Source: Mycobacterium sp. (GTDB lineage: Bacteria; Actinomycetota; Actinomycetes; Mycobacteriales; Mycobacteriaceae). From it: a DNA stretch of 64,000 nt. Position numbers and translations under genes: made by a program. Below, piece after piece: positions 8,854 through 61,885 of this stretch. Below the pieces are notes generated by a model that was not told where the DNA came from, made no database searches, and worked only from the letters and a program-made list of their open reading frames with translations. The stretch lies in assembly GCF_035623875.1 (NCBI RefSeq), contig NZ_DASPSP010000018.1, forward strand, positions 8,244 through 72,243, read 5' to 3'. Position 1 is the first letter of the stretch; the number at the start of each line of letters is the position of its first letter.

Positions 8854-10032
8854 ATGACCGTCGCCCGGCAGGTTGGGGGAACTCGCAGCTTCCTGCCCGC
8901 CGTAGAAGGAATGCGGGCCTGCGCGGCTATCGGCGTCGTCATCACCCACGTTGCATTCCAGACCGGGCACTCGGCTGGGGTCGACGGCCGGTTGTTCGGT
9001 CGCTTCGATCTGGCGGTCGCGGTGTTCTTCGCGTTGTCGGGGTTCTTGTTGTGGCGCGGACATGCTGCGGCGGCGCGCGGCCTGGGCTCGCGACCGTCGA
9101 CCGGTCACTACCTGCGATCGCGGGTGGTCCGCATCATGCCGGCGTACCTGGTCGCCGTCGTCGTGATCCTGACCCTGCTGCCGGAGGCTGATCACCCGAA
9201 CCTGACGGTCTGGCTGGCGAACCTCTCGCTTACCCAGGTCTACGTGCCGTTGACATTGACACACGGGCTGACCCAGATGTGGAGCCTGTCGGTAGAGGTC
9301 ACCTTCTATCTGGCGTTGCCGATCCTTGCGTTGTTGGCGGCCCGGCTGCCGGTCCGTGCCCGGGTGCCGGCGATCGCCGGTCTCGGTGTCGTCAGCTGGT
9401 TTTGGGGCTGGATTCCCTTCGCCGCTCCGGCCGGGCTCAATCCGTTGAACTGGCCGCCGGCATTCTTCTCCTGGTTCGTCGCGGGGATGCTGCTCGCGGA
9501 GTGGGTGCACAGTCCGCTCGGGTGGCCGCATCGGCTGGCCCGACGTCGGGTGCTTATGGCCGTCGTCGCGGCGGTGGCTTATCTGGTGGCCGCCTCACCG
9601 CTGGCCGGGCCCGCGGGGCTGGTCCCGAGCACCGCCGCGCAGTTCACGGTGAAGACCGCGATGGGTGCGTTGGTGGCGGCGGGTCTGGTGGCGCCGCTGG
9701 TGCTGGACCGGCCCGACACCGGCCATCGGCTCTTGGGTACCAGGCCGATGGTGACGCTGGGGCGCTGGTCGTACGGAATCTTCATCTGGCATCTTGCGGC
9801 GCTGACCATGGTGTTCCCGGTGATCGGTGAATTTTCGTTTAGGGGGCGCATGCCCGAGGTGCTGGTGCTGACGCTGATCTTCGCGATTGCCATCGCCGCG
9901 GTGAGCTATGCGCTTGTCGAGTCACCGTGCCGAGAAGCATTGCGGCGCTGGGAATCTCGCAGAAGACAGCGGCCAGCGCCGGTGTCCGACAGCGCCGTCA
10001 GCCCGCGCCAAGAGGACGCAATCGCGCCATGA
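8854..10032 (+). CDS. tmaT: Acyltransferase-3 membrane protein, trehalose monomycolate acetyltransferase (Rv0228-like)
   Basis: VEGMRACAA, FFALSGFLL, WSLSVEVTFY, SYGIFIWH motifs; synteny. Confidence 0.88.
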   Translation: MTVARQVGGTRSFLPAVEGMRACAAIGVVITHVAFQTGHSAGVDGRLFGRFDLAVAVFFALSGFLLWRGHAAAARGLGSRPSTGHYLRSRVVRIMPAYLVAVVVILTLLPEADHPNLTVWLANLSLTQVYVPLTLTHGLTQMWSLSVEVTFYLALPILALLAARLPVRARVPAIAGLGVVSWFWGWIPFAAPAGLNPLNWPPAFFSWFVAGMLLAEWVHSPLGWPHRLARRRVLMAVVAAVAYLVAASPLAGPAGLVPSTAAQFTVKTAMGALVAAGLVAPLVLDRPDTGHRLLGTRPMVTLGRWSYGIFIWHLAALTMVFPVIGEFSFRGRMPEVLVLTLIFAIAIAAVSYALVESPCREALRRWESRRRQRPAPVSDSAVSPRQEDAIAP

Positions 10033-11470
10033 CCTCGGCGCGGACCGCCGAGCGCCGCGCCTTCCCGGCGTCGTCGCGCAACGGCCTGTCGACGAACTCG
10101 ATACTGGCCGGCACCTTGTAGCCGGCGATCCGGTCGCGCAGAAACGCCTGCACCGCCTGCTCGTCCAGCACCGATCCTGCCTCAACCAGGGCATAGGGCA
10201 CTTGGCCGAGATCGTCGTGAGGCACACCAACAACCAGGCAGGACAGCACATCCGGGTGCGCCGACAGTGCGTTCTCGATTTCAGCCGGGTAGACGTTGCG
10301 GCCGCCGACGGTGAACATGTCGACCCGGCGATCGGACAGGTACAAGAACCCGTCCTCGTCGAAATGGCCCAGGTCGCCCAACGAGTCCCAGCCGTCGCGG
10401 GATTTCGCCGTCGTGCCGATGTACCGGTACGACGGCACACTGCCCGGGCTGGGCCGCATGTAGATCTCGCCGACCACACCGGGCGGACACGGGTTACCGT
10501 CGTCGTCGAGCACCTTCATCTCGCCCATGACCACCACACCGACCGATCCGGGATGGGTCAGCCATTGGTCGCCGGAGATGAAGGTCATCGCCTGAAATTC
10601 GGTGCCGCCGTAAAGCTCCCAGACCCTTTCGGGACCCAGCAGATCGATCCACGCCTGCTTGATAGCCGGCGGACACGGCGCCGCGAGGTGCCAAAACCGC
10701 TGGATCGACGACAGGTCATAGGAATCCGGATCGGTGCGGTAGACCGGCAGCGCCCGCTGCATCATCGTCGGCACCGCGGTGACGAGCTGCGGGCGATGCT
10801 CGGTGATCACCCGCAGGAACCCGTGCGGGTCGAACCGGCCCATCAGCACGAGGTGGTTGCGCATGATCAACGCGATCGCCGCGGCGGTGAAGCCGGTGGT
10901 GTGCGTCAGCGGCACCGGCACCAGCGCGGTATCGCCCTGCTGGTTACCCACGGCGTACCCCAGTGCCGGCCCGAGCCGGCTGTCGCCGCCCGCCTCGATG
11001 AGCTTCGGCCGGCCGGTGCTGCCGCCGGAGGCGATCGACCTCCAGCACGGTGACACCGCTTCCGGCAACGGTCCATCCGACAACGCCTGGTCGGGAACGA
11101 AACCTTTAGGAACACTTGGTATTCCGGGGTGCGTTCGCCCCACGAGCAGCGCGCGTGGCCGCAGTTCCAGCAGGCCTTCGAACTCCGCGTCCGGCAGCCG
11201 AGCGGACAGCGGCTGCGGCACCGCGCCCAGCTTCCAGCACGCCACCATGGCCTGTACACACTCGACGGAGTTGGGCAGCACGATGGTCACGTAGTCGCCG
11301 ACGCCGACGCCGCGCTCCGCGTAGGCGCGGGCCAGCCGGTTGGTCGAGCGCTCCAGTTCGCCGCGGGTCAGCGTACGCCCGTCACAGGTAACTGCCGGCT
11401 CGTCGGGAGCGAGCGCGGCCAGCGCGGAAATCTGAGTACCGATCGGTGGGACCGGCGCACTCTGCGTCAT
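9998..11470 (-). CDS. AMP-dependent acyl-CoA synthetase (FadD/BaiB-like)
   Basis: SGGSTGRPK, YGGTE, GDLG, GGRNVYPAEIE, YKVP motifs; ATG overlaps the php stop (ATGA). Confidence 0.9.
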   Translation of the reverse strand: MTQSAPVPPIGTQISALAALAPDEPAVTCDGRTLTRGELERSTNRLARAYAERGVGVGDYVTIVLPNSVECVQAMVACWKLGAVPQPLSARLPDAEFEGLLELRPRALLVGRTHPGIPSVPKGFVPDQALSDGPLPEAVSPCWRSIASGGSTGRPKLIEAGGDSRLGPALGYAVGNQQGDTALVPVPLTHTTGFTAAAIALIMRNHLVLMGRFDPHGFLRVITEHRPQLVTAVPTMMQRALPVYRTDPDSYDLSSIQRFWHLAAPCPPAIKQAWIDLLGPERVWELYGGTEFQAMTFISGDQWLTHPGSVGVVVMGEMKVLDDDGNPCPPGVVGEIYMRPSPGSVPSYRYIGTTAKSRDGWDSLGDLGHFDEDGFLYLSDRRVDMFTVGGRNVYPAEIENALSAHPDVLSCLVVGVPHDDLGQVPYALVEAGSVLDEQAVQAFLRDRIAGYKVPASIEFVDRPLRDDAGKARRSAVRAEVMARLRPLGAG

Positions 11471-12513: not shown

Positions 12514-13533
12514 TCATCCCGCCTGCTCGGGCCCGAGGTCACTAGCCGCAATCTGGTGCACGACCTGACCGCTGCGGGCACTCAAGGCGGCCAGTGCGGC
12601 GTCCGCGACGGCGTTGGTGGCGTACCCGTCGTAGGTCGACGGCCCGTCGATCGAGTGGTTGGCCACCGCTGTCAGCCAGGAGATGTTCTGGGCGCGATAG
12701 GCGTCCTCGAACCGTTCGAGCCAGCTGTGCGGCAGCCGCTGGGCTGCCATGCCGTCGCTGACGGCATGCGTCGTCACCGCCGGCGATCCAAGGGTCACGC
12801 TGCCGCGGCTGCCAACGAGGTCGAGCCCGATGTCGTATCGCATTCCCGGTCCGCGACCGAGTTCGACAACTCCGAGGATGCCGGATTCCGACGTCAGCGT
12901 GACAAGAACAGTCACCGTCGATCCGTCGTCGCTGCTTTTGGCGGCACAGGTGACCTCGCTGATCTCCTCACCGGTGAGCCAGCGGAACAGGTCGATATCG
13001 TGTGCAGCCGAACTGACAATGAGCATCTGGGCATCAAAGTTGATGATAGCCAACGGGTTGTGATGCCGTTGAGTGATCAGGATGGGCTGGCCGACTCGAC
13101 CGGACCGCGCTGTGTCATGGATATGCCGATAGTCGGCGTCGTATCGGCGCATGTAGCCGACTTGGACGAGCGGGTGGCCGCTGGCTCGTTCGGCTTGCAC
13201 CAGTTGCAAGGATTCTTCAGCCGAGCGGGTCAGCGGCTTTTCGCACAGCACGTAGAGGCGCCGCGCGATGCACGCGTCGACGATCCGGTGGCGGGTGTCG
13301 TCAGTGGTGGCCACGACGGCAGCGTCGATATCGACGTTGCTCAGGCAGTCCAGCGGGTCGTGAAAGACCTTGGCAGCCGGGACAAGTGCGGCGGCGCGTT
13401 CGGCAAACGGCGGGTGGCTATCCGCCACGGCGGCGATCTGCGCCCACGGAGCCAGGCTTTGAAAGATCCTCAGGTGATGCAGCCCCATGTTTCCCAGCCC
13501 GATCAGGGCCAGCCGAACCGGAGCGGCGCTCAC
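12514..13533 (-). CDS. Gfo/Idh/MocA oxidoreductase (inositol dehydrogenase-like)
   Basis: IGLGNMG Rossmann motif, CEKP, QVGYMRRYD, HDIDL. Confidence 0.88.
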   Translation of the reverse strand: MSAAPVRLALIGLGNMGLHHLRIFQSLAPWAQIAAVADSHPPFAERAAALVPAAKVFHDPLDCLSNVDIDAAVVATTDDTRHRIVDACIARRLYVLCEKPLTRSAEESLQLVQAERASGHPLVQVGYMRRYDADYRHIHDTARSGRVGQPILITQRHHNPLAIINFDAQMLIVSSAAHDIDLFRWLTGEEISEVTCAAKSSDDGSTVTVLVTLTSESGILGVVELGRGPGMRYDIGLDLVGSRGSVTLGSPAVTTHAVSDGMAAQRLPHSWLERFEDAYRAQNISWLTAVANHSIDGPSTYDGYATNAVADAALAALSARSGQVVHQIAASDLGPEQAG

Positions 13534-13619
13534 TCCCGACCTCCGAACACTACGGACGTTTCTTTTTTCGTGCCGCTATCAGCACTCGTGAGGTGCGGGT
13601 GACGACGGCACCCTCGGGT

Positions 13620-13718
13620 TCAATCTGCGCCATCGGGTGTCGGCGTCAGAACGCGTCGTCGTCTGGGCCCAAGCTCCAGCGCTTCGAAAAGGTTGAACTC
13701 GATGTCACGCAAGTCCAT
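13620..13718 (-). pseudogene. N-terminal relic of a FadE5-type acyl-CoA dehydrogenase
   Basis: GAGGAGG RBS then MDLRDIEFNLFEALELG (compare [13 protein letters not shown] of fadE5 in this window); stops after 32 codons. Confidence 0.5.
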
Positions 13719-13852
13719 GCATCCCTCCTCGGGGCAGTATGTAGTGTCGTGCCGTTTCCCGGGAGGAATTTCCAAGGTTCCGAACATCGCGAAACGCACG
13801 GGTTCAGGTGGGTGACCCGATCACGTCGGGCGCGAGGCCTAAGAACTGTGCC

Positions 13853-14482
13853 TCAGGCGGCCCGGAAAGCGCGGTAGACGGCGGATCCGATGAACTCGCC
13901 CAGCGTGCCGGGTGACCAGTCGTGGCCACTGTCGCGTAGCAGCGTCCGCACCGCTCCCTCGCAAGCGGACATGAACTGTTCCGCCAGGACGGGCAGCTTC
14001 CTCTCGAAATCGGTTGTGCCCCAGTGTTTTAATCTCGGGCGCAATAGCTTGGCGAATTGGTTGGCGATTGCCGCCCGGCCGTTCTGGAATTGCTCAGCGG
14101 TGGCGGGATCGGGGTCGGCGCTCATCATCAACCGCCATGAGTCCGGCCTTCGATCGACTGCCGCCAGCAGCGCCTGGAAGCCTGCGACGAACAACGCCTC
14201 GTCGCCTTCGGGGCGGTCGTGCGGCAAGGCCGACGTCGCCTCCCCGAGCAGGATGTCGTTTTCGCGGTCGAGCAGCGCATGGAGCAGCTCGACCCGGTCG
14301 GCGAAGCACGAGTAGACGACCGGGCGGGTGACGTCCAGCCGCTCGGCAACGGCGCCGATGGTCACCGCCGCCACGCCGCGCTCGATGGCTATCGCCAGCG
14401 CGGCGTCAAGCACCTGTGGGCGGCGTCGTTCGGGTCCCAGATGTGCGGCGCGGGATCTGCTCTGCACAGTTCCTGCAGCCAT
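13853..14482 (-). CDS. TetR-family transcriptional regulator
   Basis: HTH: VLDAALAIAIERGVAAVTIGAVAERLDVTRPVVYSCF. Confidence 0.9.
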   Translation of the reverse strand: MAAGTVQSRSRAAHLGPERRRPQVLDAALAIAIERGVAAVTIGAVAERLDVTRPVVYSCFADRVELLHALLDRENDILLGEATSALPHDRPEGDEALFVAGFQALLAAVDRRPDSWRLMMSADPDPATAEQFQNGRAAIANQFAKLLRPRLKHWGTTDFERKLPVLAEQFMSACEGAVRTLLRDSGHDWSPGTLGEFIGSAVYRAFRAA

Positions 14483-48445: not shown

Positions 48446-51400
48446 TCAGGGGCGCCCGTATCCGCCGCCGCCGGGAGTGTGGATCTCCAGGATGTCGCCG
48501 GCGTTCAGCTCGACCGAGTCGCAGCCAGCGAGTTCGACGACGCTGCCGTCCACGCGGCGGACCAGGTTGCGACCGAGCGCACCTGGCGCTCCCCCGGCCA
48601 TCCCGTACGGGGGGACGCGTCGGTGCTGCGACAGCATGCTGACCGTCATGAGTTCCCGAAATCGGAGCCGCCGCACCGCGCCGTCCCCGCCGCGCCACCG
48701 CCCGTCCCCGCCGCTGCCGCGGCGGATCGCGAAGCTGTCGACCAACACCGGGAACCGCCACTCCAACACCTCGGGGTCGGTCAACCGGGAGTTGGTCATG
48801 TGGGTCTGGACCACCGAAGCCCCGTTATAACCCGGCCCCGCACCGGATCCGGAGGCGACGGTCTCGTAGTACTGGTGCCTGGCATTGCCGAACGTCACGT
48901 TGTTCATCGTCCCCGAGCCCTCGGCCTGTACCCCGAGCGCCGCGTAGAGGGCACCGGTGATGGACTGCGAGGTCTCCACGTTGCCGGCGACGACTGCGGC
49001 CGGATAAACCGGTGCGAGCATGCAGCCCGGCGGGATAACCACCTGCAGCGGCTTGAGGCAACCGTCGTTGAGCGGGATGTCGTCGTCGACCAGGGTCCGG
49101 AACGCGTACAGCACCGCGGCCATCACCACCGAAGTCGGTGCGTTGAAGTTGGTGTTCAGCTGTGGGGAGGTCCCGGTGAAATCGATTGTGGCCGTCCGAT
49201 TTTCCGCGTCGACTGAGACTCGGACCTTGATGACCGCCCCGCCGTCCATCTCATAGGTGTACTCGCCGTCGCCCAAAGCGGCGATCACGCGCCGCACCGC
49301 CTCCTCGGCGTTGTCCTGGACGTGACGCATGTAGGCCTGCACCACCTCCAGGCCGAAGTCGTCGATCATTTTGCGGACTTCCTCCACGCCTTTTTCGGTA
49401 GCGGCGATCTGGGCGCGTAGGTCCGCCAGGTTGGTCTCCGGGTTGCGTGAGGGGTACGACGCCCTGGTGAGCAGGTCGCGTGTCTCGGTCTCCCGGAGGG
49501 CGCCATGCTCCACCAGCAGCCAATTGTCGAACAGCACACCCTCCTCGTGCACGTCGCGGCTGCCCGCCGGCATCGAGCCGGGACTCACTCCGCCGATCTC
49601 AGCATGGTGGCCCCGGGCGGCGACGAAGAACAACAGCCGCTCGCCGTCTCCGAAAACCGGTGTGACGACGGTGACATCGGGCAGGTGGGTGCCGCCGTGG
49701 TAAGGGTCGTTGATCGCATACGCATCACCGATTTTCATCGCCCCGGCGTTACGGGCGATGATCTCCTTGACGGCCGCTCCCATCGAACCCAGGTGGACCG
49801 GGATATGCGGTGCGTTGGCGACGAGGTTGCCCTCGGGGTCGAACAACGCGCAGGAGAAGTCGAGCCGCTCTTTGATGTTCACCGACTGGGCCGTGGACTC
49901 CAGCCGCACCCCCATCTGCTCGGCGATCGACATGAACAGGTTGTTGAAGATCTCAAGCAGTACCGGGTCGGCGTCGGTGCTCACCTCGCCGGCGCCGGTG
50001 TGGGCGCGCACCCGCGTCAGCACAAGATGCCCGAGCTCTACTAACTCGGCGCGCCAGCCATCCTCGACCACCGTGGTCGCGTTGGTCTCGGCAATGATGG
50101 CCGGGCCGGTGACCGTCTCGCCGAGGACGAGCCGGTCCCGCCGGAACAGCGACACCTCGCGCCAGCCCCCCTGGTTGTACATGGGAACGGTGTCCACGGG
50201 CCCCGCAGGCGGGCCGTCCGGATGGGACGCCTCCGCCAAGGCGCGCAGGTCAGGCTGCTCGGTGAGTCCAACGGCCTCCACGGAGACGGCTTCGACTACC
50301 AGGGGACGGTCCATTAGGAACGAGTAGTTGCGTTTGTAGCTTGCCTCGAACTCGGCGGCCATCGTCTCCGGGTCGGCCAGGCCCACCTGGACCGCGATGT
50401 CGGTGCCGTCGTAGCGGAGGTGTGCCCGGCGGGTCACGCGGAGCCGCTCGTCGGGCACGTCCTCGTCTTGCAGGCGCGCGCGCGTGGCTGATTCCAGTGC
50501 ATCGGCGACCTCGCCCACCCGCTCCATCGCTTCCGGCTCAAGCTGGCACTCCACCGACTGTTCGCGCATGGCGGTCGCGTCCGCGAGCCCGATGCCCAAC
50601 GCGGACAGCACACCCGCCATGGGCGGAATCAAGACGGTGCCGATGCCCAAAGAATCGGCCACCGCGCAGGCGTGCTGGCCGCCGGCGCCCCCGAACGTGG
50701 TCAGCACGTACTCGGTGACGTCGCGCCCTTTTTGCACCGTGATTCGCTTGACCGCGTTGGCCATGTTGGCCACCGCGATCCGCAGGTAGCCCTCGGCGAC
50801 CTGCTCGGGGGTGCGGTCGTCGCCGGTCTGTGCGGCGATCTCGCGTGCCAGCTCACCGAACCGCCGCCCGACGATCTCGGCGTCCAGCGGCTGGTCGCCG
50901 TCGGGGCCGAAGACGGCGGGGAAATGGTTCGGCTGGACGCGGCCGAGCATAACGTTGGCGTCGGTGACAGTCAGCGGGCCGCCGCCTCGGTAGCAGGCCG
51001 GACCGGGATCGGCGCCCGCCGAGTCCGGGCCCACTCGGTACCGGGTGCCGTCGAAGTGCAGGACCGACCCGCCGCCGGCGGCAATGGTCTGGATGTCCAG
51101 CATCGGCGCGCGCAGCCGGACTCCCGCGACCAGGGTGTTGAAGACGCGCTCGTATTCCCCGGCGTAGTGCGACACATCCGTGGACGTGCCGCCCATATCA
51201 AAACCAATGACCTTGTCGAATCCAGCCAGCTCCGACATGCGAACCATCCCGACGATGCCGCCGGCCGGGCCGGACAGGATCGCGTCTTTGCCGCGGAAGT
51301 GTCCGGCCTCGGCCAGGCCCCCGTTGGACTGCATGAACATCAGTCGCACGCCCGGCAGCTCGGCGGCCACCTGCTGGATGTAGCGATGCAAGATCGGTGA

Positions 51401-52045
51401 CAGATATGCGTCGACGACGGTGGTGTCACCGCGCGAGACGAGCTTCATCAGCGGACTGACTTCCGCCGACAGCGAGATCTGCGGGAAGCCGATTTGTTTG
51501 GCGGCCTCGCCGATCGCCTGCTCATGGGCCGGGTACAGGTGGCTGTGCAGAGACGCAATGGCCACTGCGTGGATTCCGTCGCCGTAGGCCGCCCGCAGGT
51601 CGGTCGCCAGCCGGTCTAGATCCGGAGCCCGCAGCACCGTGCCGTCGGCCGTGACCCGTTCGTCGACCTCGATGACCCGTTCGTGGAGCAGTTCCGGCAG
51701 GACAATGTTGCGGGTGAAGATGCGCGGCCGGTTCTGGTAGCCGATCCGCAGCGCGTCCCCGAAACCCCGGGTGATGACGAGCGCCGTGCGCGCGCCCTTG
51801 CGCTCCAGCAGCGCATTGGTCGCTACCGTGGTGCCCATCCGCACCGCCTCGATCCGCTCGGCCGGAATCGGATCATCCGCCGCGAGTCCAAGCAGTGCGC
51901 GGATCCCCGCCACCGCGGCGTCGGCGTAGCGCGAGGGGTTGTCCGAAAGCAGCTTGTGCGTCACCAGACGCCCGTTCGGCTGACGGGCGACGATATCGGT
52001 GAACGTTCCACCGCGGTCGATCCAAAACTGCCACTTCCCGGCCAC
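48446..52045 (-). CDS. oplA: Single-chain 5-oxoprolinase / hydantoinase A+B fusion (Rv0266c)
   Basis: [63 protein letters not shown]; GAGGAG RBS before GTG 52045. Confidence 0.93.
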
Positions 52046-52204
52046 CCGATGCTCCTCATCGTTTAGTAGGGACGAGTTGCCGGTCACGGTGACTGCTGTT
52101 ACTGCCGGGGTGTACCAGCATGGGACGCGTGGCCTGTCGGTTGTCCCGATGCTCGGTGTCTTAGGAGACCACGGGCGCCTGGCGGCAGATCGCGTGAGCC
52201 GGAC

Positions 52205-52824: not shown

Positions 52825-52999
52825 TTTTCGAGCACTGCCAGAGGCGCCTTGGCCAATGCTCAGACGGCCGGCGGTTGGCCACGAAAACTACGGTGGCCGC
52901 CCGGGTCTAATGCAGGATATTGGCGATCAGTGCCGGCAACTGATCGGCCACTAGCGGATAGCTCAGCGGCGACGCGAAGGCGATCGCTCCGGCCTGGTC
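52825..52999. repeat. Direct repeat copy B
   Basis: Homologous to 48199-48362; covers the last ~30 codons of the intact gene and ~80 bp downstream. Confidence 0.85.
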
Positions 53000-53887
53000 C
53001 TTGGTGGTGAACACGCTGCGCGTCTGCAGAGCCGCCACGTCGGGATTGGCCAACAGCGCCGCGTGATCGTCCTCGCTTTCAGTCGTCCAGATCAGTAGAT
53101 CGGCGGCGTCGAGGACCGGCCTGATCTTGTCGCGCGGAATGAACGCGCGCTGCTGATCGACTGCGAAGGGGCTGATGTTGTCGGCGATGGCCAGACCCAT
53201 CTGCGTCAGAAACTCGGTGTGCCAACCGGTTATTGCCACCACATCGTCTTGGTGGAGCTTGCCTTGCAGCAGGAGCACTTTCTTGGTTTTGAACTGCGGA
53301 TATTTATCCGCAACGGCCGCGAAACTTCGATCGATGCCGTTGATCAGTGATTTCATCTGGTCGGGCTGAAAAACCGCCCGGCCGATCGCCGTCGCTTGGT
53401 CCTTCCACGGCTCGAAGAATGCGTCGCCGTCGGACTGTGGAATCGTTGGGGCGATCGCGGTGAGCTTCTGGTAGGTGTCCTCGTCGACGCCTGCGTCGGT
53501 GGCGACGATCAAGTCGGGTTTCAGACTGGCGATCCGCTGAACCTGAATTCCGTTGTCCAGATTCAACACAACGGGTTTGGCGTTGCCGAGTTTGGGCCGA
53601 GCCCACGGCCACACCGCGAACGGCTGGTCGCCGAACCAGTTGGTCACCGCTATCGGCACGACGCCGAGCGCGAGCAGGTCGTCCTGCCCGGTGTAACCGG
53701 CGCTGACCACTCGCTTGGGCGGTTCGGGGACGGTCGTCTCACCGAAAACATGCGTGATGGTCACGGGTCGGCCGCCGGGGCCGGCGGGCGCCGCCTTATG
53801 CGACGAGCAGGCGGGAGCCGCCACCGCGAGCAGCCCCGCGGCCGCGCCGACGCGCAGAAATCCGCGCCGACTCCATTGCTCTGGCAT
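52907..53887 (-). CDS. Iron-siderophore-type ABC substrate-binding lipoprotein, Tat-exported (Rv0265c-like)
   Basis: SRRGFL twin-arginine motif, lipobox APAC, HVFGETTVPEPPKRVV, IASLKPDLIV. Confidence 0.9.
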   Translation of the reverse strand: MPEQWSRRGFLRVGAAAGLLAVAAPACSSHKAAPAGPGGRPVTITHVFGETTVPEPPKRVVSAGYTGQDDLLALGVVPIAVTNWFGDQPFAVWPWARPKLGNAKPVVLNLDNGIQVQRIASLKPDLIVATDAGVDEDTYQKLTAIAPTIPQSDGDAFFEPWKDQATAIGRAVFQPDQMKSLINGIDRSFAAVADKYPQFKTKKVLLLQGKLHQDDVVAITGWHTEFLTQMGLAIADNISPFAVDQQRAFIPRDKIRPVLDAADLLIWTTESEDDHAALLANPDVAALQTRSVFTTKDQAGAIAFASPLSYPLVADQLPALIANILH

Positions 53888-53909: not shown

Positions 53910-54494
53910 TCAGGTCAACGGCATGCCGGCGTCGACGAAGTCCAGGGCACGGTAGACGGTGTCGGCCGCGCGCGGACCAGGCTCGTAGACTGCCATCATC
54001 GCGCCGGTGAGGGCTCCGGCGAATGCCCGAAGCTCGAAATCGTTTGCATCACGGCCGATTCGGCGGCCGATTGCCTCGGCGAACGTGGTGATGGTGCGGT
54101 AATACTCGTCGTACATGGCCGCCTTGAGTTCGGGTATCGAGAACATCAGCCGTTGCCGGGTGTTCTCGAACTCCCGTTGGTCCTCCGACAGATTGGCCAT
54201 GGCGGCCTGGTAGGCGCGCCGGACCGCCTGACTCGGCGAAAGGTCGGGCGGCTGTTCGTCCAAGGCATTCAGGATCACCGGGTCCATGTCGTCGGCGAGC
54301 AACACCGACTCCTTGGTCGGGAAATACCGGAAAAACGTGCTCGGCGATACCTCGGCGGCCTCAGCGATCTGCTCGACCGTGGTGGCGGCGTAACCGTTTT
54401 CTTCGATCAGCCGAAACGCCTCCCGCCTGATGGTCTGGCGGGTCCTGATCTTCTTGCGTTCCCGCAGACCGGGGGTTTGGTCAGTCACCTGCAT
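53910..54494 (-). CDS. TetR-family regulator
   Basis: GLRERKKIRTR...ATTVEQIAEAAEVSPSTFFRYFPTKE. Confidence 0.92.
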   Translation of the reverse strand: MQVTDQTPGLRERKKIRTRQTIRREAFRLIEENGYAATTVEQIAEAAEVSPSTFFRYFPTKESVLLADDMDPVILNALDEQPPDLSPSQAVRRAYQAAMANLSEDQREFENTRQRLMFSIPELKAAMYDEYYRTITTFAEAIGRRIGRDANDFELRAFAGALTGAMMAVYEPGPRAADTVYRALDFVDAGMPLT

Positions 54495-54606
54495 GAGGTA
54501 ATTCTCCCGCACGCCGCGCGGAGGGGTGATGCGTAGTGCAGTGAACATGCTCTTCCAACCGTATGTTTGCCGGAAACATGCTGCAATTCAGATGATTTGG
54601 CGCTTA

Positions 54607-56487
54607 TCACGCCGACAGCTTCACCGCCCTGTCGTTGCCCCGGTCGGCGACGTAGATATTCCCGGCGTTGTCCACGGCCACCCCCAACGGGGTGTTGAGC
54701 CCGGTCAGCGGCAGCGCGGTCGGGGTGTTCGATCCGGCCGGCAACTTCAACACTTGGTTGCCGTCGTGTTCAGTGACGAAAACGTCGCCGACGTTGTCCA
54801 CCGCGATACCCCACGGGACGGCGACGCCGATGAACGGGAGCGCGGTCTGAGTTGTCGAGCCGGCCGCCAGCATCGACACCCGGTTGTTGTCGGTGTCGGT
54901 GACGTAGACGTTGCCGGCGGGGTCGACCGCCACGCCATCGGGGTTCTTGAGCCCGGTGAACGGCAGCACGGTCTGAGTTGTCGAGCCGGCCGCCAACTTC
55001 AACACCCGGTCGTTGCCCCGGTCGGCGACATAGACGCTGCCCTGGCCATCCACCGCTACACCTTCGGGATAGTTCAGGCCGGTAAACGGCAGCACGGTCT
55101 GGCCGGTCGACCCGGCCGTCAACTTGACCACCCTGTTGTTGAAATCGGCGACGTACACGGCCCCGGCGCTGTCTACCGCGAGCCCCTGGGGCTGGTAAAG
55201 GCCGCTGAACGGCAGCACCGTCGGGGTGCTTGATCCGGGCGCCAACTCAACCACGCGTCCGTACATGCCCTCGCTGGTGACGTACACATCGCCGGCTTTG
55301 TCCACCGCCACCCCGCCGGGCGATAGGCGGAAGTCGATACCGGTGAACGGCAGCTCAGTTTGTGCGGAGGTCGGATGCTTCGATGCCGCCGACGGGTGCG
55401 CCCCCAAATAGCCGGTGGTAGCGATAGCCGCGACTGCCAGCAGTGCGGCTGCGCCGATAAGGATCCACCGCTTGCGGTTTCGGCTGGGCGGGGGCGCATT
55501 GCGGGTGAAGTCCGGTGGGGGCGTGGGGGACTGGTGATTGGGCGGCGGTGTGCTTACCCAGGGCGTGGGCCGAGCCGTGGTCTCGACGGCGTCGGCCATC
55601 CGCGTCGCATCCTGGCTGTGCCGCAGAATCGTCGCCTCTTGGTATTGCTCGGGCGCGGTAAGCGCCTCATGAGCGGCCACGGCCAGATCTCCGGCGGAGC
55701 AGTAGCGGTCTGCCGGGTTCTTGGCCATGCCTTTGCCGATAACCGGATCGAGGGCCGGCGGAACCCGCCCGGGACGGAGCTCGCTGGGCCGCGGCGCGGG
55801 TTCGAGCAGATGGGCGGCGATCAGCCGTTCGACGCTGGTGGCCCGATACGGCGGTGCGCCGGTCAAACACTCACCCAACACGCAGGCCAGCGCATAGATG
55901 TCGGAGCGGTAGGTGACCTCGTCGCCGGTGAAGCGCTCCGGCGCCATGTAGTTGTAGGTCCCCACCGCAAATCCGCTTTGGGTCAGCCCAGGGTCGGTGG
56001 CGGCGCGGGCAATTCCGAAATCAACCAAATAGGCGAAGTCGTCATTGGTTAACAGAATGTTTTCCGGTTTGACATCTCGATGTGTGACGCCGTTAGCGTG
56101 CGCCGCGTCGAGCGCGGCGGCGATCTGGCGCACGATGGCAACGCTTCGCGCCGGGCTCAGCGGACCGTAGTTCGTCAACAGCGCGCGCAGCGAGACGCCG
56201 TCGATCATGCGCATTTCTACGTAGAACTGACCGTCGATATCGCCATAGTCATGGATGGGAACGATGTGCGGTTCGGTCAGCCGTCCCGCGGTGTCGGCTT
56301 CCCGTCGCATCCGCATGTAAAACGTTGCGTCGGTGGAGAATTGCGGCGAGATCAGCTTCAGCGCGACCACCCGGTGCTTGCGGGTGTCCTCGGCCTCATA
56401 GACCTCGCCCATGCCGCCGCGGCCTAACAGCCGCCTCAACTGATACGGGCCAAACCGTAAGCCAACCCGCGAAACGGTACTGTTCAC
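54607..56487 (-). CDS. pknD: Ser/Thr protein kinase PknD with extracellular NHL beta-propeller
   Basis: GRGGMGEV, HRDVKPEN, DFG, YMAPE; one TM; six LPFTGL-x-P-x-G-VAVD blades; AAGGAG RBS. Confidence 0.93.
   Translation of the reverse strand: MNSTVSRVGLRFGPYQLRRLLGRGGMGEVYEAEDTRKHRVVALKLISPQFSTDATFYMRMRREADTAGRLTEPHIVPIHDYGDIDGQFYVEMRMIDGVSLRALLTNYGPLSPARSVAIVRQIAAALDAAHANGVTHRDVKPENILLTNDDFAYLVDFGIARAATDPGLTQSGFAVGTYNYMAPERFTGDEVTYRSDIYALACVLGECLTGAPPYRATSVERLIAAHLLEPAPRPSELRPGRVPPALDPVIGKGMAKNPADRYCSAGDLAVAAHEALTAPEQYQEATILRHSQDATRMADAVETTARPTPWVSTPPPNHQSPTPPPDFTRNAPPPSRNRKRWILIGAAALLAVAAIATTGYLGAHPSAASKHPTSAQTELPFTGIDFRLSPGGVAVDKAGDVYVTSEGMYGRVVELAPGSSTPTVLPFSGLYQPQGLAVDSAGAVYVADFNNRVVKLTAGSTGQTVLPFTGLNYPEGVAVDGQGSVYVADRGNDRVLKLAAGSTTQTVLPFTGLKNPDGVAVDPAGNVYVTDTDNNRVSMLAAGSTTQTALPFIGVAVPWGIAVDNVGDVFVTEHDGNQVLKLPAGSNTPTALPLTGLNTPLGVAVDNAGNIYVADRGNDRAVKLSA
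54610..55362 (-). repeat. Six tandem NHL repeats (about 126 bp each) in pknD
   Basis: Recurring QTVLPFTGL..P.GVAVD..G.VYV.D..N.RV.KL units. Confidence 0.85.
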
Positions 56488-56526
56488 CGGCCACGCTCCT
56501 TTCAAAAATTCGTCAAATTCCGCTGT

Positions 56527-57633
56527 CTACGAAATTGCATTCACAGCTGCTGCGATTTTCGATTGGAATGCGCTCGGCAGCGGAATCGATCCGTACTGAT
56601 CCAAACCGTCTTGACCCGGACCAATTGCGGCCTGCATAAACGCTTTTACCGCCGCGCCAGTAGCAGAATCTGGATATTTCGAGCAAACGATTTCATAGGT
56701 CGGCTCCACGATCGGATACGCACCAGGTTGCGTTGGCCGGTAAAACGACGAGGTGTCCACCACCAGGTCATTGCCCTGTCCCTTGAACGTGGCCCCGGCA
56801 ATGGTCTTGCTCACCGAGTCGGTGGTGATCTCCACCGGATCCGGACCGGCTGAGGTAATGATCTGGGCCATGCTCAATTGCCGGCCCACCCCGAACGACC
56901 ATTCGTTATAGGTGATCGACCCTTCGGTGCTCTGCACTTCCGCCGAGGTGCCGTTGTCCCCGACGCCGCCGTCGCCGACACCCCCGAGGAATGTCTGGCT
57001 GGCACCTTTGCCCCACGCGCCGTTGGATGCGGCGACCAGGTATCGCTCAAAGTTCGACGTGTCAGCGGATTGGTCGCTGCGGAAAAAGACGTGGATGGGC
57101 TCCGACGGCAAGGTGGTGCCCGGATTGAGCGCGCCGATCACCGGGTCATCCCAGCTGGTAATCGCTCCGTTGAAGATCTTTGCGAGCGTGGCTGCATCAA
57201 GTTTCAGCGAGTTCACGCCGTTGACGTTGTAGGTGACCGCGATTGGTTCGAACACCGCCGGCAAGTCCCACGCCGGCGAACCGCATCGCTGCGCCGCCCG
57301 ATCGACCTGCCCTTTCGACGGATCCAACGGATCGCCGGAACCCGCCAGATCGCTGACGTTGTTGACGAAGTCCGTCACCCCGGCACCGGAGCCGTTGGCG
57401 TTGTAGTCCAGCGTGTAGCCCGGGCACGCATGGACGTAGGCGAAGACGAATTGTTCGATCGCATTCTCTTGCGCGGTCGCGCCGCTGCCCTTGAGCTGCT
57501 TCTTTCCACCGCATTGCACCTGAGCCGAGCTGGCTCCAGCCGACGATGCGTGGGTGGAGCTGCCACACCCCGTCAACACCAGTGCGCTGGCGGCCAACAG
57601 ACTCAGCACGGCGCCGTATCGGTTGAACTTCAC
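56527..57633 (-). CDS. pstS2: PstS2-like substrate-binding lipoprotein with atypical binding-site motifs
   Basis: GGAGGAG RBS, VKFNRYG start, lipobox [24 protein letters not shown]; motifs read [15 protein letters not shown]. Confidence 0.88.
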
Positions 57634-57828
57634 CGGAAACTCCTCCGAATCGTCAGGGAGGCGGACACACTCACTCCGCCACCGGGGAGCCCCCTTCGGA
57701 TCACGTTGTGCCCCGGCGGACCAGCCCGTGAACCTGTGAATATCGAAGCCTCGGAACATGGGTGCAGGATTAGCGACCGCTTTAAAAAGGATTAGCAAAC
57801 GACAAGAGAATCGGGAAGAGCCTGAAGG

Positions 57829-57866
57829 TAAGCACGATTTAAGCACAGAATGAGCGGCACCTGAGC
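57829..57866. promoter_or_regulatory. Four T(A/G)AGC direct repeats at 11-bp period in the pstS2/pstB divergent intergenic region
   Basis: TAAGC 57829, TAAGC 57840, TGAGC 57851, TGAGC 57862. Confidence 0.55.
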
Positions 57867-57964
57867 CAGATGAGTAGCAGGTTAGTGCCACCTTTGAAAA
57901 TAAATAGAGCATTGCGCCGCCGAATCATCAGTGGGGCATGACGACGTAACTTTGTGGAGTGTTG

Positions 57965-58828
57965 ATGACCCGTGACCAGCTCAACGCCGAGACCGGTGCT
58001 GAAGCTGGTGTCGATGCTCCGGCCATGCGTGCGGTGAACCTCACCCTGGGTTTCGGCGCCACAACCGTCCTCCACGAGGTGAGCCTGGACTTTCCCCCGC
58101 AGTCGATCACGTCCTTGCTGGGGCCGACCGGCTCCGGTAAGACGACCTTCCTGCGCACCCTGAATCGTATGAACGACAACGTTTTTGGATACCGCTATAG
58201 CGGTGATGTCCTGTTGGGCGGACGCAGCATCTTCAAAAGCCAAGACCTGATGGAGTTTCGCCGCAGGGTCGGCATGCTGTTCCAGCGTCCCAATCCATTC
58301 CCGATGTCGATCTTGGACAACGTAGTTGCGGGTCTGGGCGCACATAAGCTGGTGTCCCGCAAGCACTTTAAGAGTGTTGCGCAGGCTCGCCTGGCCGAGG
58401 TCGGCCTCTGGGATGCGGTTAAGGATCGGCTCGGTGATTCGCCATTCCGGCTCTCCGGAGGTCAACAACAATTGTTGTGCCTGGCTCGTGCGCTTGCAGT
58501 GAACCCGGAGGTCCTGCTGCTCGACGAGCCCACCTCATCGCTGGACCCGGCCACGACCGAGAAAATCGAAGAGCTCATTCGATCGCTGGCCAACCGGCTC
58601 ACCGTGATCATGGTGACGCACGACCTTGCCCAGGCCGCCCGCATAGGCGACCGGACCGCCTTGTTCTTTGACGGCAGGTTGGTGGAGGACGGACCCACCG
58701 AACAGCTGTTCCTCTCGCCAAAGCATGCGGAGACCGTCCGTTATGTCTCTGGACTGTTTGGCGACCGCCACCTTCTGGGTGTGGTCGTCGGGGCCACAGA
58801 CGCCAACGAGGGAAAGAAAGGTGAGTGA
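57965..58828 (+). CDS. pstB: Phosphate-type ABC transporter ATPase (Rv0933-like)
   Basis: GPTGSGKT, FQRPNPFPMSI, LSGGQQQ, LLLDEPT, VTH. Confidence 0.93.
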   Translation: MTRDQLNAETGAEAGVDAPAMRAVNLTLGFGATTVLHEVSLDFPPQSITSLLGPTGSGKTTFLRTLNRMNDNVFGYRYSGDVLLGGRSIFKSQDLMEFRRRVGMLFQRPNPFPMSILDNVVAGLGAHKLVSRKHFKSVAQARLAEVGLWDAVKDRLGDSPFRLSGGQQQLLCLARALAVNPEVLLLDEPTSSLDPATTEKIEELIRSLANRLTVIMVTHDLAQAARIGDRTALFFDGRLVEDGPTEQLFLSPKHAETVRYVSGLFGDRHLLGVVVGATDANEGKKGE

Positions 58829-58833
58829 GGGCC

Positions 58834-59949
58834 GTGAAAATCTCGCTGCGTACGCTGCTGGTTGCGGTGCCATTGATCCTGGTCGCCGCTGGTTGCGGTT
58901 CGAACTCAACAGGCGGGTCGTCCAACCCCGGGGCTAGCACCGGTAGCGTCGCGACTACGCCCGCGACGTCGAAGGTCGCATTGTCGGAGACCGGGGCCAC
59001 AGAGCTGTACCCGCTGATGAATTCATGGGTTCCGGCTTATCAGGCGAAATACCCGAACGTCACGATCACGACTGCGGCCACCGGGTCGGGCGCCGGGATC
59101 TCCCAGGCAATTGCCAGGGCGGTCGATATCGGCGCCTCCGGCGCCTACCTGTCGCAGGGTCAGATTTCCGCGCACAAGGGGCTGATGAATATCGCCTTGG
59201 CCATTGCCGCCGAGGAGGTCCACTACAACGTGCCCGGTGTCAGCGAGCACCTCAAGCTGAACGGCAAGGTGCTGGCGGCCATGTATGAAGGCACCATCAA
59301 GGCTTGGAATGACCCGCAGATCGCCGCGCTCAACCCCGGAGTGAATTTGCCGGCCATCCCGGTGGTTCCGCTACACCGTTCCGACGGGGCCGGCGATACT
59401 TTCGTGTTCACCCAGTACCTGTCGAAACAAGACCCCGACGGCTGGGGTAAGTCGCCCGGCTTTGGCACCACCGTCGACTTCCCCGCGGTGCCGGGCGCGC
59501 TCGGTGAGAACGGCGCCGGTGGCATGGTGACCGGCTGCGTTCAGACTCCCGGTTGCGTCGCCTACATCGGCATCAGCTACCTCGACCAGGCCAGCCAGAA
59601 GGGACTGGGCGAGGCCGAACTGGAAAATGCCTCCGGCAAGTACCTGCTGCCGGATGCCCAAAGCATTCCGGCTGAGGCCGCCGGTTTCGCCTCGCAGACC
59701 CCGGCAAACCAGGTGATCTCACTGATCAACGGACCAGCCGCCAACGGGTACCCGATCGTCAACTATGAGTACGCCGTTGTCTACGGCAGCCAGAAGGATG
59801 CCGCTACCGCACAGACGCTGCAGGCATTTCTGCACTGGGTGGTGACCGAAGGTAGCGGCCCCTCGTTCCTGGATAAGGTTCACTTTCAACCGCTGCCGTC
59901 CTCGGTGGAGAAGCAGTCCGACGCTCAAATCGCCAGCATCACAAGTTAG
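58834..59949 (+). CDS. pstS1: PstS1-like (38 kDa antigen family) substrate-binding lipoprotein with atypical binding-site motifs
   Basis: Lipobox AAGC, YPNVTIT, TGSGAGI, HLKLNGKVLAAMY; motifs read GATEL, GASGAY, RSDGAGDT. Confidence 0.92.
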   Translation: MKISLRTLLVAVPLILVAAGCGSNSTGGSSNPGASTGSVATTPATSKVALSETGATELYPLMNSWVPAYQAKYPNVTITTAATGSGAGISQAIARAVDIGASGAYLSQGQISAHKGLMNIALAIAAEEVHYNVPGVSEHLKLNGKVLAAMYEGTIKAWNDPQIAALNPGVNLPAIPVVPLHRSDGAGDTFVFTQYLSKQDPDGWGKSPGFGTTVDFPAVPGALGENGAGGMVTGCVQTPGCVAYIGISYLDQASQKGLGEAELENASGKYLLPDAQSIPAEAAGFASQTPANQVISLINGPAANGYPIVNYEYAVVYGSQKDAATAQTLQAFLHWVVTEGSGPSFLDKVHFQPLPSSVEKQSDAQIASITS

Positions 59950-59958
59950 CTCGATGCG

Positions 59959-61029
59959 TTGACGCTTCCCACGCGACAGCGGGCGCTGGCCGACCCGCTA
60001 GTGGTATCGCGCTTGCTGGGCCGCATGCGTGGCGTGAGCCGCGGGGGCATTGCCGTCCGGTGGGCTGGCGGGGCGGGTGCGGTGATCCCGTTGCTCGCGC
60101 TCGTGTTCGTGCTGGGCACGCTGATCATCGAGGCGCTTCCGGCGATCAGGCTCAACGGGCTGCACTTCTTCACCGCCACCGAATGGAATCCGGGAAACCT
60201 TTACGGCAGCACCGAAGTCAGCAACGGTGTTCCACATCCGGTCGGTGCGTACTACGGGGCATTGCCGATGATCGTCGGCACGTTGGCGAGTTCCGCGATC
60301 GCCCTGATGATCGCGGTACCGGTGTCTGTCGGGGCGGCGTTGGCGATCGTGGAACGGCTACCAAAACGTGCTGCCTCGGCCGTCGGCATGGTGCTCGAAT
60401 TGCTCGCCGGGATCCCCAGTGTCGTCGTCGGCCTCTGGGGGGCAATGACTTTCGGGCCGTTCATCGCCCACCACGTCGCTCCCGTGATCGCGCGTAATGC
60501 GCCGAATGTGCCGGTGCTCAATTATTTCCGCGGGGACACCGGCAACGGGGAAGGCATGTTGGTGTCCGGCCTGGTGCTGGCGGTGATGATCATTCCGATC
60601 ATTGCCAGCACCTGCCGCGATCTGATCCGGCAGGTGCCGTCGCTACCACGCGAGGGTGCGATCGCGCTCGGCATGTCCGACTGGGAGTGTGCGCGCAAGG
60701 TCACCCTGCCATGGGTGTCTAGCGGCATTGTCGGCGCCATCGTGCTGGGATTGGGACGTGCGCTGGGCGAGACGATGGCCGTTGCCATGGTGTCCGGTGC
60801 GGAGTTGGGTGCCATGCCCGGCAACATCTACTCGACCATGACCACCATCGCCGCAACCGTTGTGTCGCAGTTGGATTCAGCGTTAACCGACTCCACCAAC
60901 TTCGCAGTGAAGACCCTTGCCGAGGCAAGTCTTGTGCTGATGGTGATCACGTTGCTGACGAATATGTTGGCTCGTGCGCTGGTGCGCCGCGCGTCGGGTA
61001 CCGCGCTACCAGTCGGGCGGGGTATCTGA
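59959..61029 (+). CDS. pstC1: Phosphate-type ABC permease PstC (Rv0935-like)
   Basis: [28 protein letters not shown] (EAA loop), [10 protein letters not shown]. Confidence 0.93.
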
Positions 61030-61030
61030 A

Positions 61031-61885
61031 ATGTGGTCGGTAACCTCTCGGCGCAAAACTGTCAACGCGATGTGGTGGACCGCATGTTTCTGTTGTCTGG
61101 CGATGGTGATCGTACCGACGTTGTGGATGCTGATCGGGGTCGTCGGCCGTGCGTTGCCGGTGTTCCACTGGAGCGTGCTGGTCGAAGACTCGCATGGCGG
61201 CGGTGGCGGTCTTCGCAACGCCATTGTCGGTACCCTGGTCCTGGGCCTGGGGGTCGTGCTGGTGGGTGGCACCGTCAGTGTGTTGGCCGGGATCTACCTG
61301 TCCGAATTCGCCACCGGCAGAACGCGTTCGATTCTGCGCGGCGCTTATGAGGTACTGTCGGGCATCCCATCAATCGTGCTCGGATACGTCGGCTATCTGG
61401 CGCTCGTGGTCTACTTCGACTGGGGGTTCTCGCTGGCGGCTGGAGTCTTGACGCTGTCGGTATTGAGTATCCCGTACATCGCTAAGGCCACCGAATCGGC
61501 GCTCGGTCAAGTGCCGACGGCATACCGAGAAGGGGCAACGGCGCTGGGGCTGCCGGTCGTTTGGACGCTGCGCAGGATCGTGCTGAAGACGGCACTACCC
61601 GGAATCGTCACCGGCATGCTGGTGGCGCTCGCGCTGACGATCGGTGAGACGGCGCCGATGCTTTATACGGCCGGCTGGTCGGATTCCCTTCCGACCGGCA
61701 AACTTACCGACTCACCGCTCGGTTACCTGACGTATCCGATCTGGACGTTCTACAACCTGCCGTCGAAAACCGCCCTGGACCTGTCCTATGACGCGGCCTT
61801 TTTGCTGATCGTGTTCTTGCTGCTGCTGATCATCCTGGGACGGCTGATCACCTGGTTCGCGCGGCGGCATTCAGAATCGGCGTGA
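61031..61885 (+). CDS. pstA2: Phosphate-type ABC permease PstA (Rv0936-like)
   Basis: [33 protein letters not shown]. Confidence 0.93.

Follow-up and report, generated by a model that had tools for sequence, protein, structure and literature searches.

We analysed a stretch of 64,000 nucleotides from a Mycobacterium sp. (NCBI RefSeq assembly GCF_035623875.1, contig NZ_DASPSP010000018.1, positions 8,244 to 72,243 of the forward strand; hereafter the window), which carries a Pst phosphate import module with two substrate-binding lipoproteins, PstS1 and PstS2. In both proteins Asp56, the proton acceptor and selectivity determinant of the phosphate pocket, was replaced by Gly. Judged from the sequences, the two genes appear to represent a distinct and old pocket type of mycobacteria, and not Rv0934 and Rv0932c of Mycobacterium tuberculosis in an altered orthologous form. 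We lean towards the reading that the proton acceptor was relocated within the pocket and that the cargo is still phosphate, bound with altered affinity, selectivity or pH behaviour. A first-pass annotation of the same DNA had instead proposed an importer repurposed for a new ligand. This is possible but not the best reading, since the phosphate ligands, Arg237 and Glu241 of PstC and the shared permease were kept.

Pocket positions are given in the numbering of Escherichia coli PstS. The pstS1 gene (58825–59949, forward strand) encodes 374 amino acids with the lipobox LVAAGC. Its motif GATEL (58993–59007) supplies positions 9–11 as A58 (GCC), T59 (ACA) and E60 (GAG) at 58996–59004, and the Gly106 codon (GGC, 59140–59142) in GASGAY occupies the position of Asp56. 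Further motifs were RSDGAGDT (R185, D187, A189, D191) and GENGAGG (A231). Asp191 (59395–59397) is position 141, a second pocket carboxylate that is also present in M. tuberculosis PstS1. The complete PstS1 pocket consisted of A9, T10, E11, M16, S38, G56, E79, R135, D137, A139, G140, D141 and A180. The pstS2 gene (56527–57633, reverse strand) encodes 368 amino acids with the lipobox LVLTGC. Its probable start codon is the GTG at 57633, ahead of which lies the Shine-Dalgarno sequence GGAGGAG, and not the ATG at 57912. The Gly codon (GGC, 57334–57336) in AGSGDP is equivalent to Asp56 and is followed by an Asp codon (57331–57333). Together with GATAQ, RSDQSADTS and GDNG, this gave the pocket A9, T10, A11, S38, G56, D57, R135, D137, S139, A140, D141, D177 and E254. 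All of the motifs and Gly codons quoted in the first-pass annotation were found where it had placed them. Alignment to E. coli PstS confirmed its claim that both proteins lack the same Asp and the same Ser, position 56 being Gly and position 9 being Ala in each; the latter is Ser in M. tuberculosis and Ala in E. coli itself. The changes lay within the pocket and were parallel in two paralogues that are only about 30% identical to each other, as had been claimed. The canonical ligands T10, S38, R135, D137 and the 139–141 loop were present in both proteins, save A139 in PstS1 and A140 in PstS2. Positions 139 and 140 were polymorphic within the clade, and the backbone amides there bind phosphate too.

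The M. tuberculosis locus of PstS1 (Rv0934, PDB 1PC3 and 7DM1) and PstS2 (Rv0932c) shares gene order, strands, lipoproteins, PstC1 and a PstA2-type permease with the window. Window PstS1 was about 75–80% identical to its M. tuberculosis counterpart and both have Asp141, but S9, L11 and D56 of M. tuberculosis stand against A9, E11 and G56 in the window. Likewise, M. tuberculosis-type PstS2 has S9, D56, T141, N177 and L254, whereas window PstS2 has A9, G56, D141, D177 and E254. The H37Rv motifs that the first-pass annotation had given for PstS1 (GSTLL, GASDAY, RSDGSGDT, GENGNGG) matched the alignment to 1PC3/7DM1. Those given for PstS2 (GSTAQ, AGSDVP, RSDKSGT[ST][DA], GNNG) were found in M. tuberculosis-like PstS2 proteins of M. 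attenuatum, M. alsense, M. palustre, M. kyorinense and others, which served as stand-ins for H37Rv. E. coli PstS (PDB 1IXH) has the same fold and ligands (T10, S38, R135, D137, S139/G140/141) and shares Ala9 with the window proteins; these differ from it by their natural Gly56 and Asp141, and PstS1 also by Glu11. The PDB entries 1IXG/1OIB/1PBP and 1IXI were among the structure matches of the window PstS proteins, and we take them to be the T141D and D56N mutants of E. coli PstS. The D56N mutant reportedly has near-normal affinity, and T141D reportedly favours monobasic phosphate.

The Gly56 state was not peculiar to this genome. The 120 closest homologues of each protein were compared, with identities of 79–96% for PstS1 and 76–91% for PstS2. 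GASGAY was present in 119/120 PstS1 homologues, GATEL in 117/120 and GENGAGG in 118/120; RSDGAGDT occurred in 66 and RSDGSGDT in 53. Gly56 was present in all 120 PstS2 homologues, and in 111 of them it was followed by Asp. A change of this single genome relative to its own orthologues, as the first-pass annotation had it, was therefore rejected; the substitutions belong to an old pair that is widespread in many non-tuberculous mycobacteria. The gain of carboxylates that it had listed held for both proteins, except that only the first exchange of its QQ to EE change in PstS1 was typical of the clade, the second Glu being restricted to 4/120 sequences (AAEEV). In a family-wide sample of 132 PstS domains, representatives at 50% identity, position 56 was Asp in 126 and Gly in two, one of which was a fragment of the same clade. 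Gly56 is rare family-wide yet general in a large mycobacterial group.

Related loci from species-representative genomes were surveyed (72 loci, designated L with a number), and residues were taken as fixed differently at a consensus of at least 90% within each type. The PstS1-like and PstS2-like proteins of mycobacteria fell into two discrete pocket types, a D type resembling M. tuberculosis and a G type resembling the window. In PstS1, the fixed switches from D to G were S9A, L11E, F16M and D56G, with Q79E and N180A in about 90%. Positions 9 and 11 were Ala and Glu in 47/47 G-type and Ser and Leu in 19/19 D-type proteins, and G56 was equally invariant in the G type. The fixed switches in PstS2 were S9A, D56G, N177D and L254E. 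In addition, T141 was changed to Asp or Asn in all 47 G-type PstS2 proteins, V57 to Asp in 38, G77 to Glu or Gln in 35 and G140 to Ala in 27. Aside from these switches, the phosphate ligands were identical between the types. Pairing was strict across the 72 loci, G-type PstS2 always lying beside G-type PstS1 and D beside D. Four loci held a D pair and a G pair in tandem around a single pstB-pstC-pstA set: L023 (Candidatus M. methanotrophicum), L033 (M. vulneris), L038 (M. colombiense) and L049 (M. kyorinense). Two more, L010 and L030, had an additional D-type PstS1 downstream of pstA. Synteny with the locus of Rv0934 and Rv0932c holds, but because D and G pairs coexist in some genomes, the window genes appear to be a distinct type and not simple orthologues of the M. 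tuberculosis genes.

Some members of the survey fell outside the two types. The PstS2 of L063 (7803–9021, reverse strand) was intermediate, with A9, N141, D177 and E254, yet with Asp56 retained. A further PstS1-like class was found at about 9.5–11.1 kb in each of the loci L054, L059 and L060 (M. ahvazicum), with the heavily altered pocket S9, K10, D11, A38, G56, T139 and S140; within 10 kb of these genes, pstB, pstC and pstA all went undetected. A sister class with S9, N10, N11, D56 and S140 was present in L061, L062 and L064.

For PstS1 and PstS2 alike, comparison of the window with other G-type genes gave a ratio of non-synonymous to synonymous substitution rates (dN/dS) of 0.09–0.20. In L023, the two pstS1 copies in tandem, one of the D type and one of the G type (9850–11128 and 13347–14481), were 91% identical, above the identity of same-type proteins from different genomes. 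The two copies formed a mosaic: codons 1–40, 141–180 and 201–220 held no synonymous or non-synonymous changes, and changes of both kinds clustered at the pocket motifs. Gene conversion that homogenises the tandem copies, combined with selection that holds the pocket segments apart, would be expected to leave such a pattern. A neighbour-joining tree, computed after masking of the pocket columns to see whether each G type arose once, had short internal branches (0.001–0.02), and the types were not separated but interleaved, probably owing to gene conversion. Strict pairing, the pocket segments apparently spared by conversion in L023 and the dN/dS of about 0.1–0.2 together argue that the pocket state is under selection and not decaying. 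The same had been proposed in the first-pass annotation, and the invariance of A9, G56 and E11 in G-type PstS1 agrees with it. In a separate observation, window PstS1 was 94–95% identical to the proteins of L001–L004, but the PstS2 proteins of L002–L004 were just 77–78% identical to that of the window, L001 being without pstS2. Conversely, window PstS2 was 88–90% identical to those of L010, L014, L020, L026 and L028, whose PstS1 proteins were about 80% identical. That the closest relatives of PstS1 and PstS2 lie in different genomes suggests recombination within the module.

Structures of related proteins indicate where the acceptor may have gone. The D-type pocket binds the oxygen of phosphate that carries the proton through Asp56, together with the main-chain amides of residues 10 and 11 (PMC13614923). 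In PBP-1 of Clostridium perfringens, which lacks the Asp, the side chains of Ser11, Ser13 and Ser59, equivalent to positions 9, 11 and 56, all approach one phosphate oxygen, and Ser13 is the proposed proton acceptor (PMC5381212). In SphX, Thr17 at the equivalent of position 11 has been proposed for the same role (PMC13614923). Among all 74 PstS1-like sequences, those with Gly56 always had an acidic side chain at position 11, Glu in 48 sequences and Asp in 3 of a further, divergent class, and those with Asp56 had Leu or Asn there. Since the switched positions 9, 11 and 56 surround a single phosphate oxygen in the solved Asp-less proteins, and since Gly56 is coupled to an acidic residue 11, we infer that the carboxylate of PstS1 moved from position 56 to position 11. 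With Gly in place of Asp56 and Ala in place of the neighbouring Ser9 in both lipoproteins, the acceptor role in PstS1 would pass to Glu11 (E60), with Asp141 retained, as it was in 42/47 G-type PstS1 proteins. Two aspartates have also been described in the pocket of M. tuberculosis PstS1 (PMC4996455). For PstS2, in which position 11 stays Ala, the assignment is less secure; the role may pass to the Asp or Asn gained at 141, possibly together with Asp57, which is usually present, and with Asp177 and Glu254. The loss of the hydrogen bond acceptor claimed in the first-pass annotation would accordingly be a probable relocation.

Several lines of evidence suggest that the cargo is still phosphate: the ligand set is kept, the scores lie far beyond the PstS equivalog cut-off, Asp-less proteins that bind phosphate are known, the shared permease shows no type-specific change, and Arg237 and Glu241 of PstC are conserved. 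Against the PstS equivalog TIGR00975 (cut-off 205), PstS1 scored 370.7 bits and PstS2 300 bits, both as full-length matches, and both proteins matched PF12849. Each is encoded together with pstB, pstC and pstA, the gene context expected of PstS. Roles for PstC Arg237 and Glu241 have been described (PMC12976172). The known Asp-less proteins bind phosphate with micromolar instead of nanomolar dissociation constants and discriminate against arsenate about 150-fold instead of more than 500-fold (PMC13614923, PMC5381212). These S-type proteins, Synechocystis SphX and C. perfringens PBP-1 (PDB 4Q8R), likewise lack the low-barrier hydrogen bond of Asp56, and their acceptor is proposed at position 11. 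In its gene cluster, SphX has a D-type PstS as neighbour, comparable to G beside D in the mixed mycobacterial loci. The window proteins are nevertheless not of the S type. S-type proteins combine Ser56 with a Ser or Thr at each of the positions 9 and 11, where the window has G56, A9 and E11 (PstS1) or A11 (PstS2) (PMC13614923, PMC5381212). The S type also forms a short branch resembling TIGR02136, for which the window proteins reached just 69.9 and 51.4 bits against a cut-off of 206.6. On the reading of a relocated acceptor, G-type proteins would capture inorganic phosphate and deliver it to the PstC/PstA/PstB importer that D-type proteins use as well. Without the short hydrogen bond to Asp56, affinity, preference for pH or protonation state and anion selectivity would probably differ.

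Some observations weigh against a relocated acceptor with phosphate as cargo. At positions 9, 11 and 56, G-type PstS2 lacked acidic and hydroxyl side chains alike, and it gained as many as five acidic residues close to the site. The Thr10 hydroxyl was lost in 9/47 of the G-type PstS2 sequences from the loci and in 23/120 database homologues. Such acid gains and the loss of Thr10 appear odd for a site that binds a dianion. Five G-type PstS1 proteins had Ala141, leaving Glu11 as the sole remaining acceptor candidate. The D and G types were kept apart despite apparent gene conversion, which argues for a real functional difference that could be another ligand. The comparison of the transporters, in which no residue of PstC, PstA or PstB was fixed differently between G-linked and D-linked proteins, covered a small D-linked sample of six, six and three sequences, respectively. 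Finally, the reach of Glu11 and Asp57 into the site was taken from published structures of other proteins, and the ligand was assigned by sequence.

The strongest alternative, which we regard as possible but clearly less probable, is a changed ligand. The loss of Asp56 and Ser9 would open a cavity lined with new carboxylates, which could bind a phosphomonoester, an aminoalkyl phosphate or phosphonate (phosphoethanolamine, 2-aminoethylphosphonate), phosphite, a metal–phosphate complex or another oxyanion. Both lost side chains sit at the sub-site of the protonated oxygen, both proteins acquired acidic residues, PstS2 heavily so, selection separates D and G where they coexist, and Gly56 is rare in the family (2/132). 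A study of SAR11 PstS reports an enlarged substrate cavity and tests the binding of organic phosphorus (PMC12421899), and SphX responds somewhat to beta-glycerophosphate (PMC13614923). However, the remaining phosphate ligands were all conserved, and a single permease set, without type-specific change in PstC, PstA or PstB, adjoins both the D and the G pairs in the mixed loci. The tight coupling of Gly56 to an acidic residue 11 fits replacement of the acceptor better than opening of a cavity. In addition, no genes for organophosphate or phosphonate catabolism flank the module within the window.

The permease PstA seemed to offer a further argument for a new cargo. Arg220 of PstA was named a determinant of phosphate specificity in a 2026 cryo-electron microscopy paper, and the PstA2-type permeases lack it. 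Leu, Val or Ala was found at this position in every PstA2-type protein, whether D-linked or G-linked and including the loci with D pairs only. The PstA1-type proteins, encoded beside PstS3, retain the Arg220 equivalent (SIARVMGETA). The loss is thus common to the modules of D-type, M. tuberculosis-like loci and unlinked to the G state, and it was rejected as a G-specific sign of new cargo.

A related and more tentative proposal is that the G-type pknD-pstS2/pstS1 set forms a second input channel of the alternative Pst system of mycobacteria, tuned to something other than HPO4(2-). Selection would then keep it separate from the D-type channel in the face of gene conversion, and co-duplicated copies of the kinase PknD would read the matching PstS2. 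Candidate ligands are fully monobasic phosphate in acid peat, a metal–phosphate complex and a cation-bearing organophosphate or phosphonate. In the window, pknD (54607–56505, reverse strand) lies 21 nucleotides downstream of pstS2 on the same strand, as the first-pass annotation had stated. According to Pfam matches (Pkinase, NHL), its product combines a Ser/Thr kinase with an extracytoplasmic NHL beta-propeller, and both these domains and the position of the gene downstream of pstS2 are those of PknD. In M. tuberculosis, pknD beside pstS2 has been called a 'predicted operon' (PMC3322341). Full-length pknD was co-duplicated with pstS2 in L015, L018, L033 and L038, in repeated units of pknD and pstS2 with up to three pknD copies per locus. 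In M. colombiense, the PknD beside G-type PstS2 was 78% identical to window PknD and the one beside D-type PstS2 62%. The joint duplication of full-length pknD and pstS2 favours a general functional link between the two genes. The further suggestion that PknD reads the same signal found no direct support, the adjacency being the same in M. tuberculosis.

It is improbable that the G-type proteins have left transport altogether. Here, anion binding would be weakened or lost, and the proteins would act as surface adhesins or antigens, or present a ligand to the sensor domain of PknD. The conservation and duplication of pknD and pstS2 as a unit would suit such a role, as would the loss of several hydrogen-bonding side chains from PstS2, and PMC4996455 cites an adhesin role reported for M. 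tuberculosis PstS1. On the other hand, the other pocket residues were invariant, dN/dS was low, and PstS1 was still encoded within pstB-pstS1-pstC-pstA. Moreover, the D-type PstS2 of M. tuberculosis adjoins PknD identically, which leaves the G state unexplained.

Although the window derives from a metagenome assembly, a sequencing or assembly error or incipient pseudogenes can practically be dismissed, because contigs of four independent peat metagenome runs covered both Gly codons with zero variants, Gly was present in 119/120 PstS1 and 120/120 PstS2 homologues, the reading frames and lipoboxes were intact and dN/dS was 0.09–0.20. The window was found nearly entire (98% of sampled words) in one of the peat metagenome runs and partially in the three others. 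The nearest genomes were metagenome-assembled Mycobacterium genomes from soil and peat, with a PstS1 identity of 95%. Soil metatranscriptome assemblies contained contigs about 94% identical to the window that spanned the whole of pstS1. The peat contigs branched or ended at short conserved stretches of pstS1 (59247–59277, 59547–59581 and 59580–59745), and one contig omitted 164 nucleotides. These breaks likely reflect branching of the assembly graph among co-occurring pstS paralogues or strains and no true deletion.

The module occupies 54.6–63.2 kb of the window, which has a G+C content of about 65%. Gene order and strands were as in M. tuberculosis: pknD, pstS2, pstB, pstS1, pstC and pstA, followed by a gene with a LigD primase-polymerase domain. 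A LigD-type gene presumably follows pstA in M. tuberculosis as well. The gene coordinates leave a divergent intergenic region between pstS2 and pstB (57634–57958, not assigned to a strand), the presumed promoter site. The ATPase gene pstB (57959–58828, forward strand) scored slightly under the equivalog cut-offs, with 336.4 bits against 343.2 for TIGR00972 and 484.5 against 561 for NF010864. The permease gene pstC (59959–61029, forward strand; TIGR02138, 317 bits) encodes the 10-residue motif that retains Arg237 and Glu241 of E. coli. The second permease, the PstA2-type pstA (61031–61885, forward strand), reached 198.9 bits for TIGR00974 (cut-off 193.45) and has Leu at the E. coli Arg220 position within an 11-residue motif. 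PstB, PstC, PstA and PknD were intact, as were the lipoboxes, in agreement with the first-pass annotation. In M. tuberculosis and in L005, L009, L017 and L069, pstS3-pstC2-pstA1 lies upstream of pknD. The 64-kb window contained no third PstS, and no pstS3-pstC2-pstA1 upstream of pknD. There, it encoded instead a TetR/MftR-like regulator (53910–54548), a Peripla_BP_2 binding protein (52907–53887) and an open reading frame of 1213 amino acids (48446–52087), which we take, by eye, to be oxoprolinase-like.

Asp56 has been regarded as the residue that makes high-affinity phosphate-binding proteins selective for phosphate over arsenate and over sulfate. The mycobacterial proteins form a large, conserved natural Gly56 class inside the long branch of the E. 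coli and M. tuberculosis type, with the same state in two distant paralogues. No description of Gly-type mycobacterial PstS was found in the literature searched, and within that literature the class is a previously undescribed form of Asp-less phosphate-binding proteins, which are already known as a kind. Properties such as ligand and pH behaviour should not be carried over from PstS1 and PstS2 of M. tuberculosis to non-tuberculous orthologues because of the shared name alone. The Gly56 class represents a natural experiment on the rebuilding of proton recognition, with carboxylates placed elsewhere in the pocket. In M. colombiense, M. vulneris and M. kyorinense, where D and G pairs surround one transporter, the purpose of multiple PstS proteins is directly testable.

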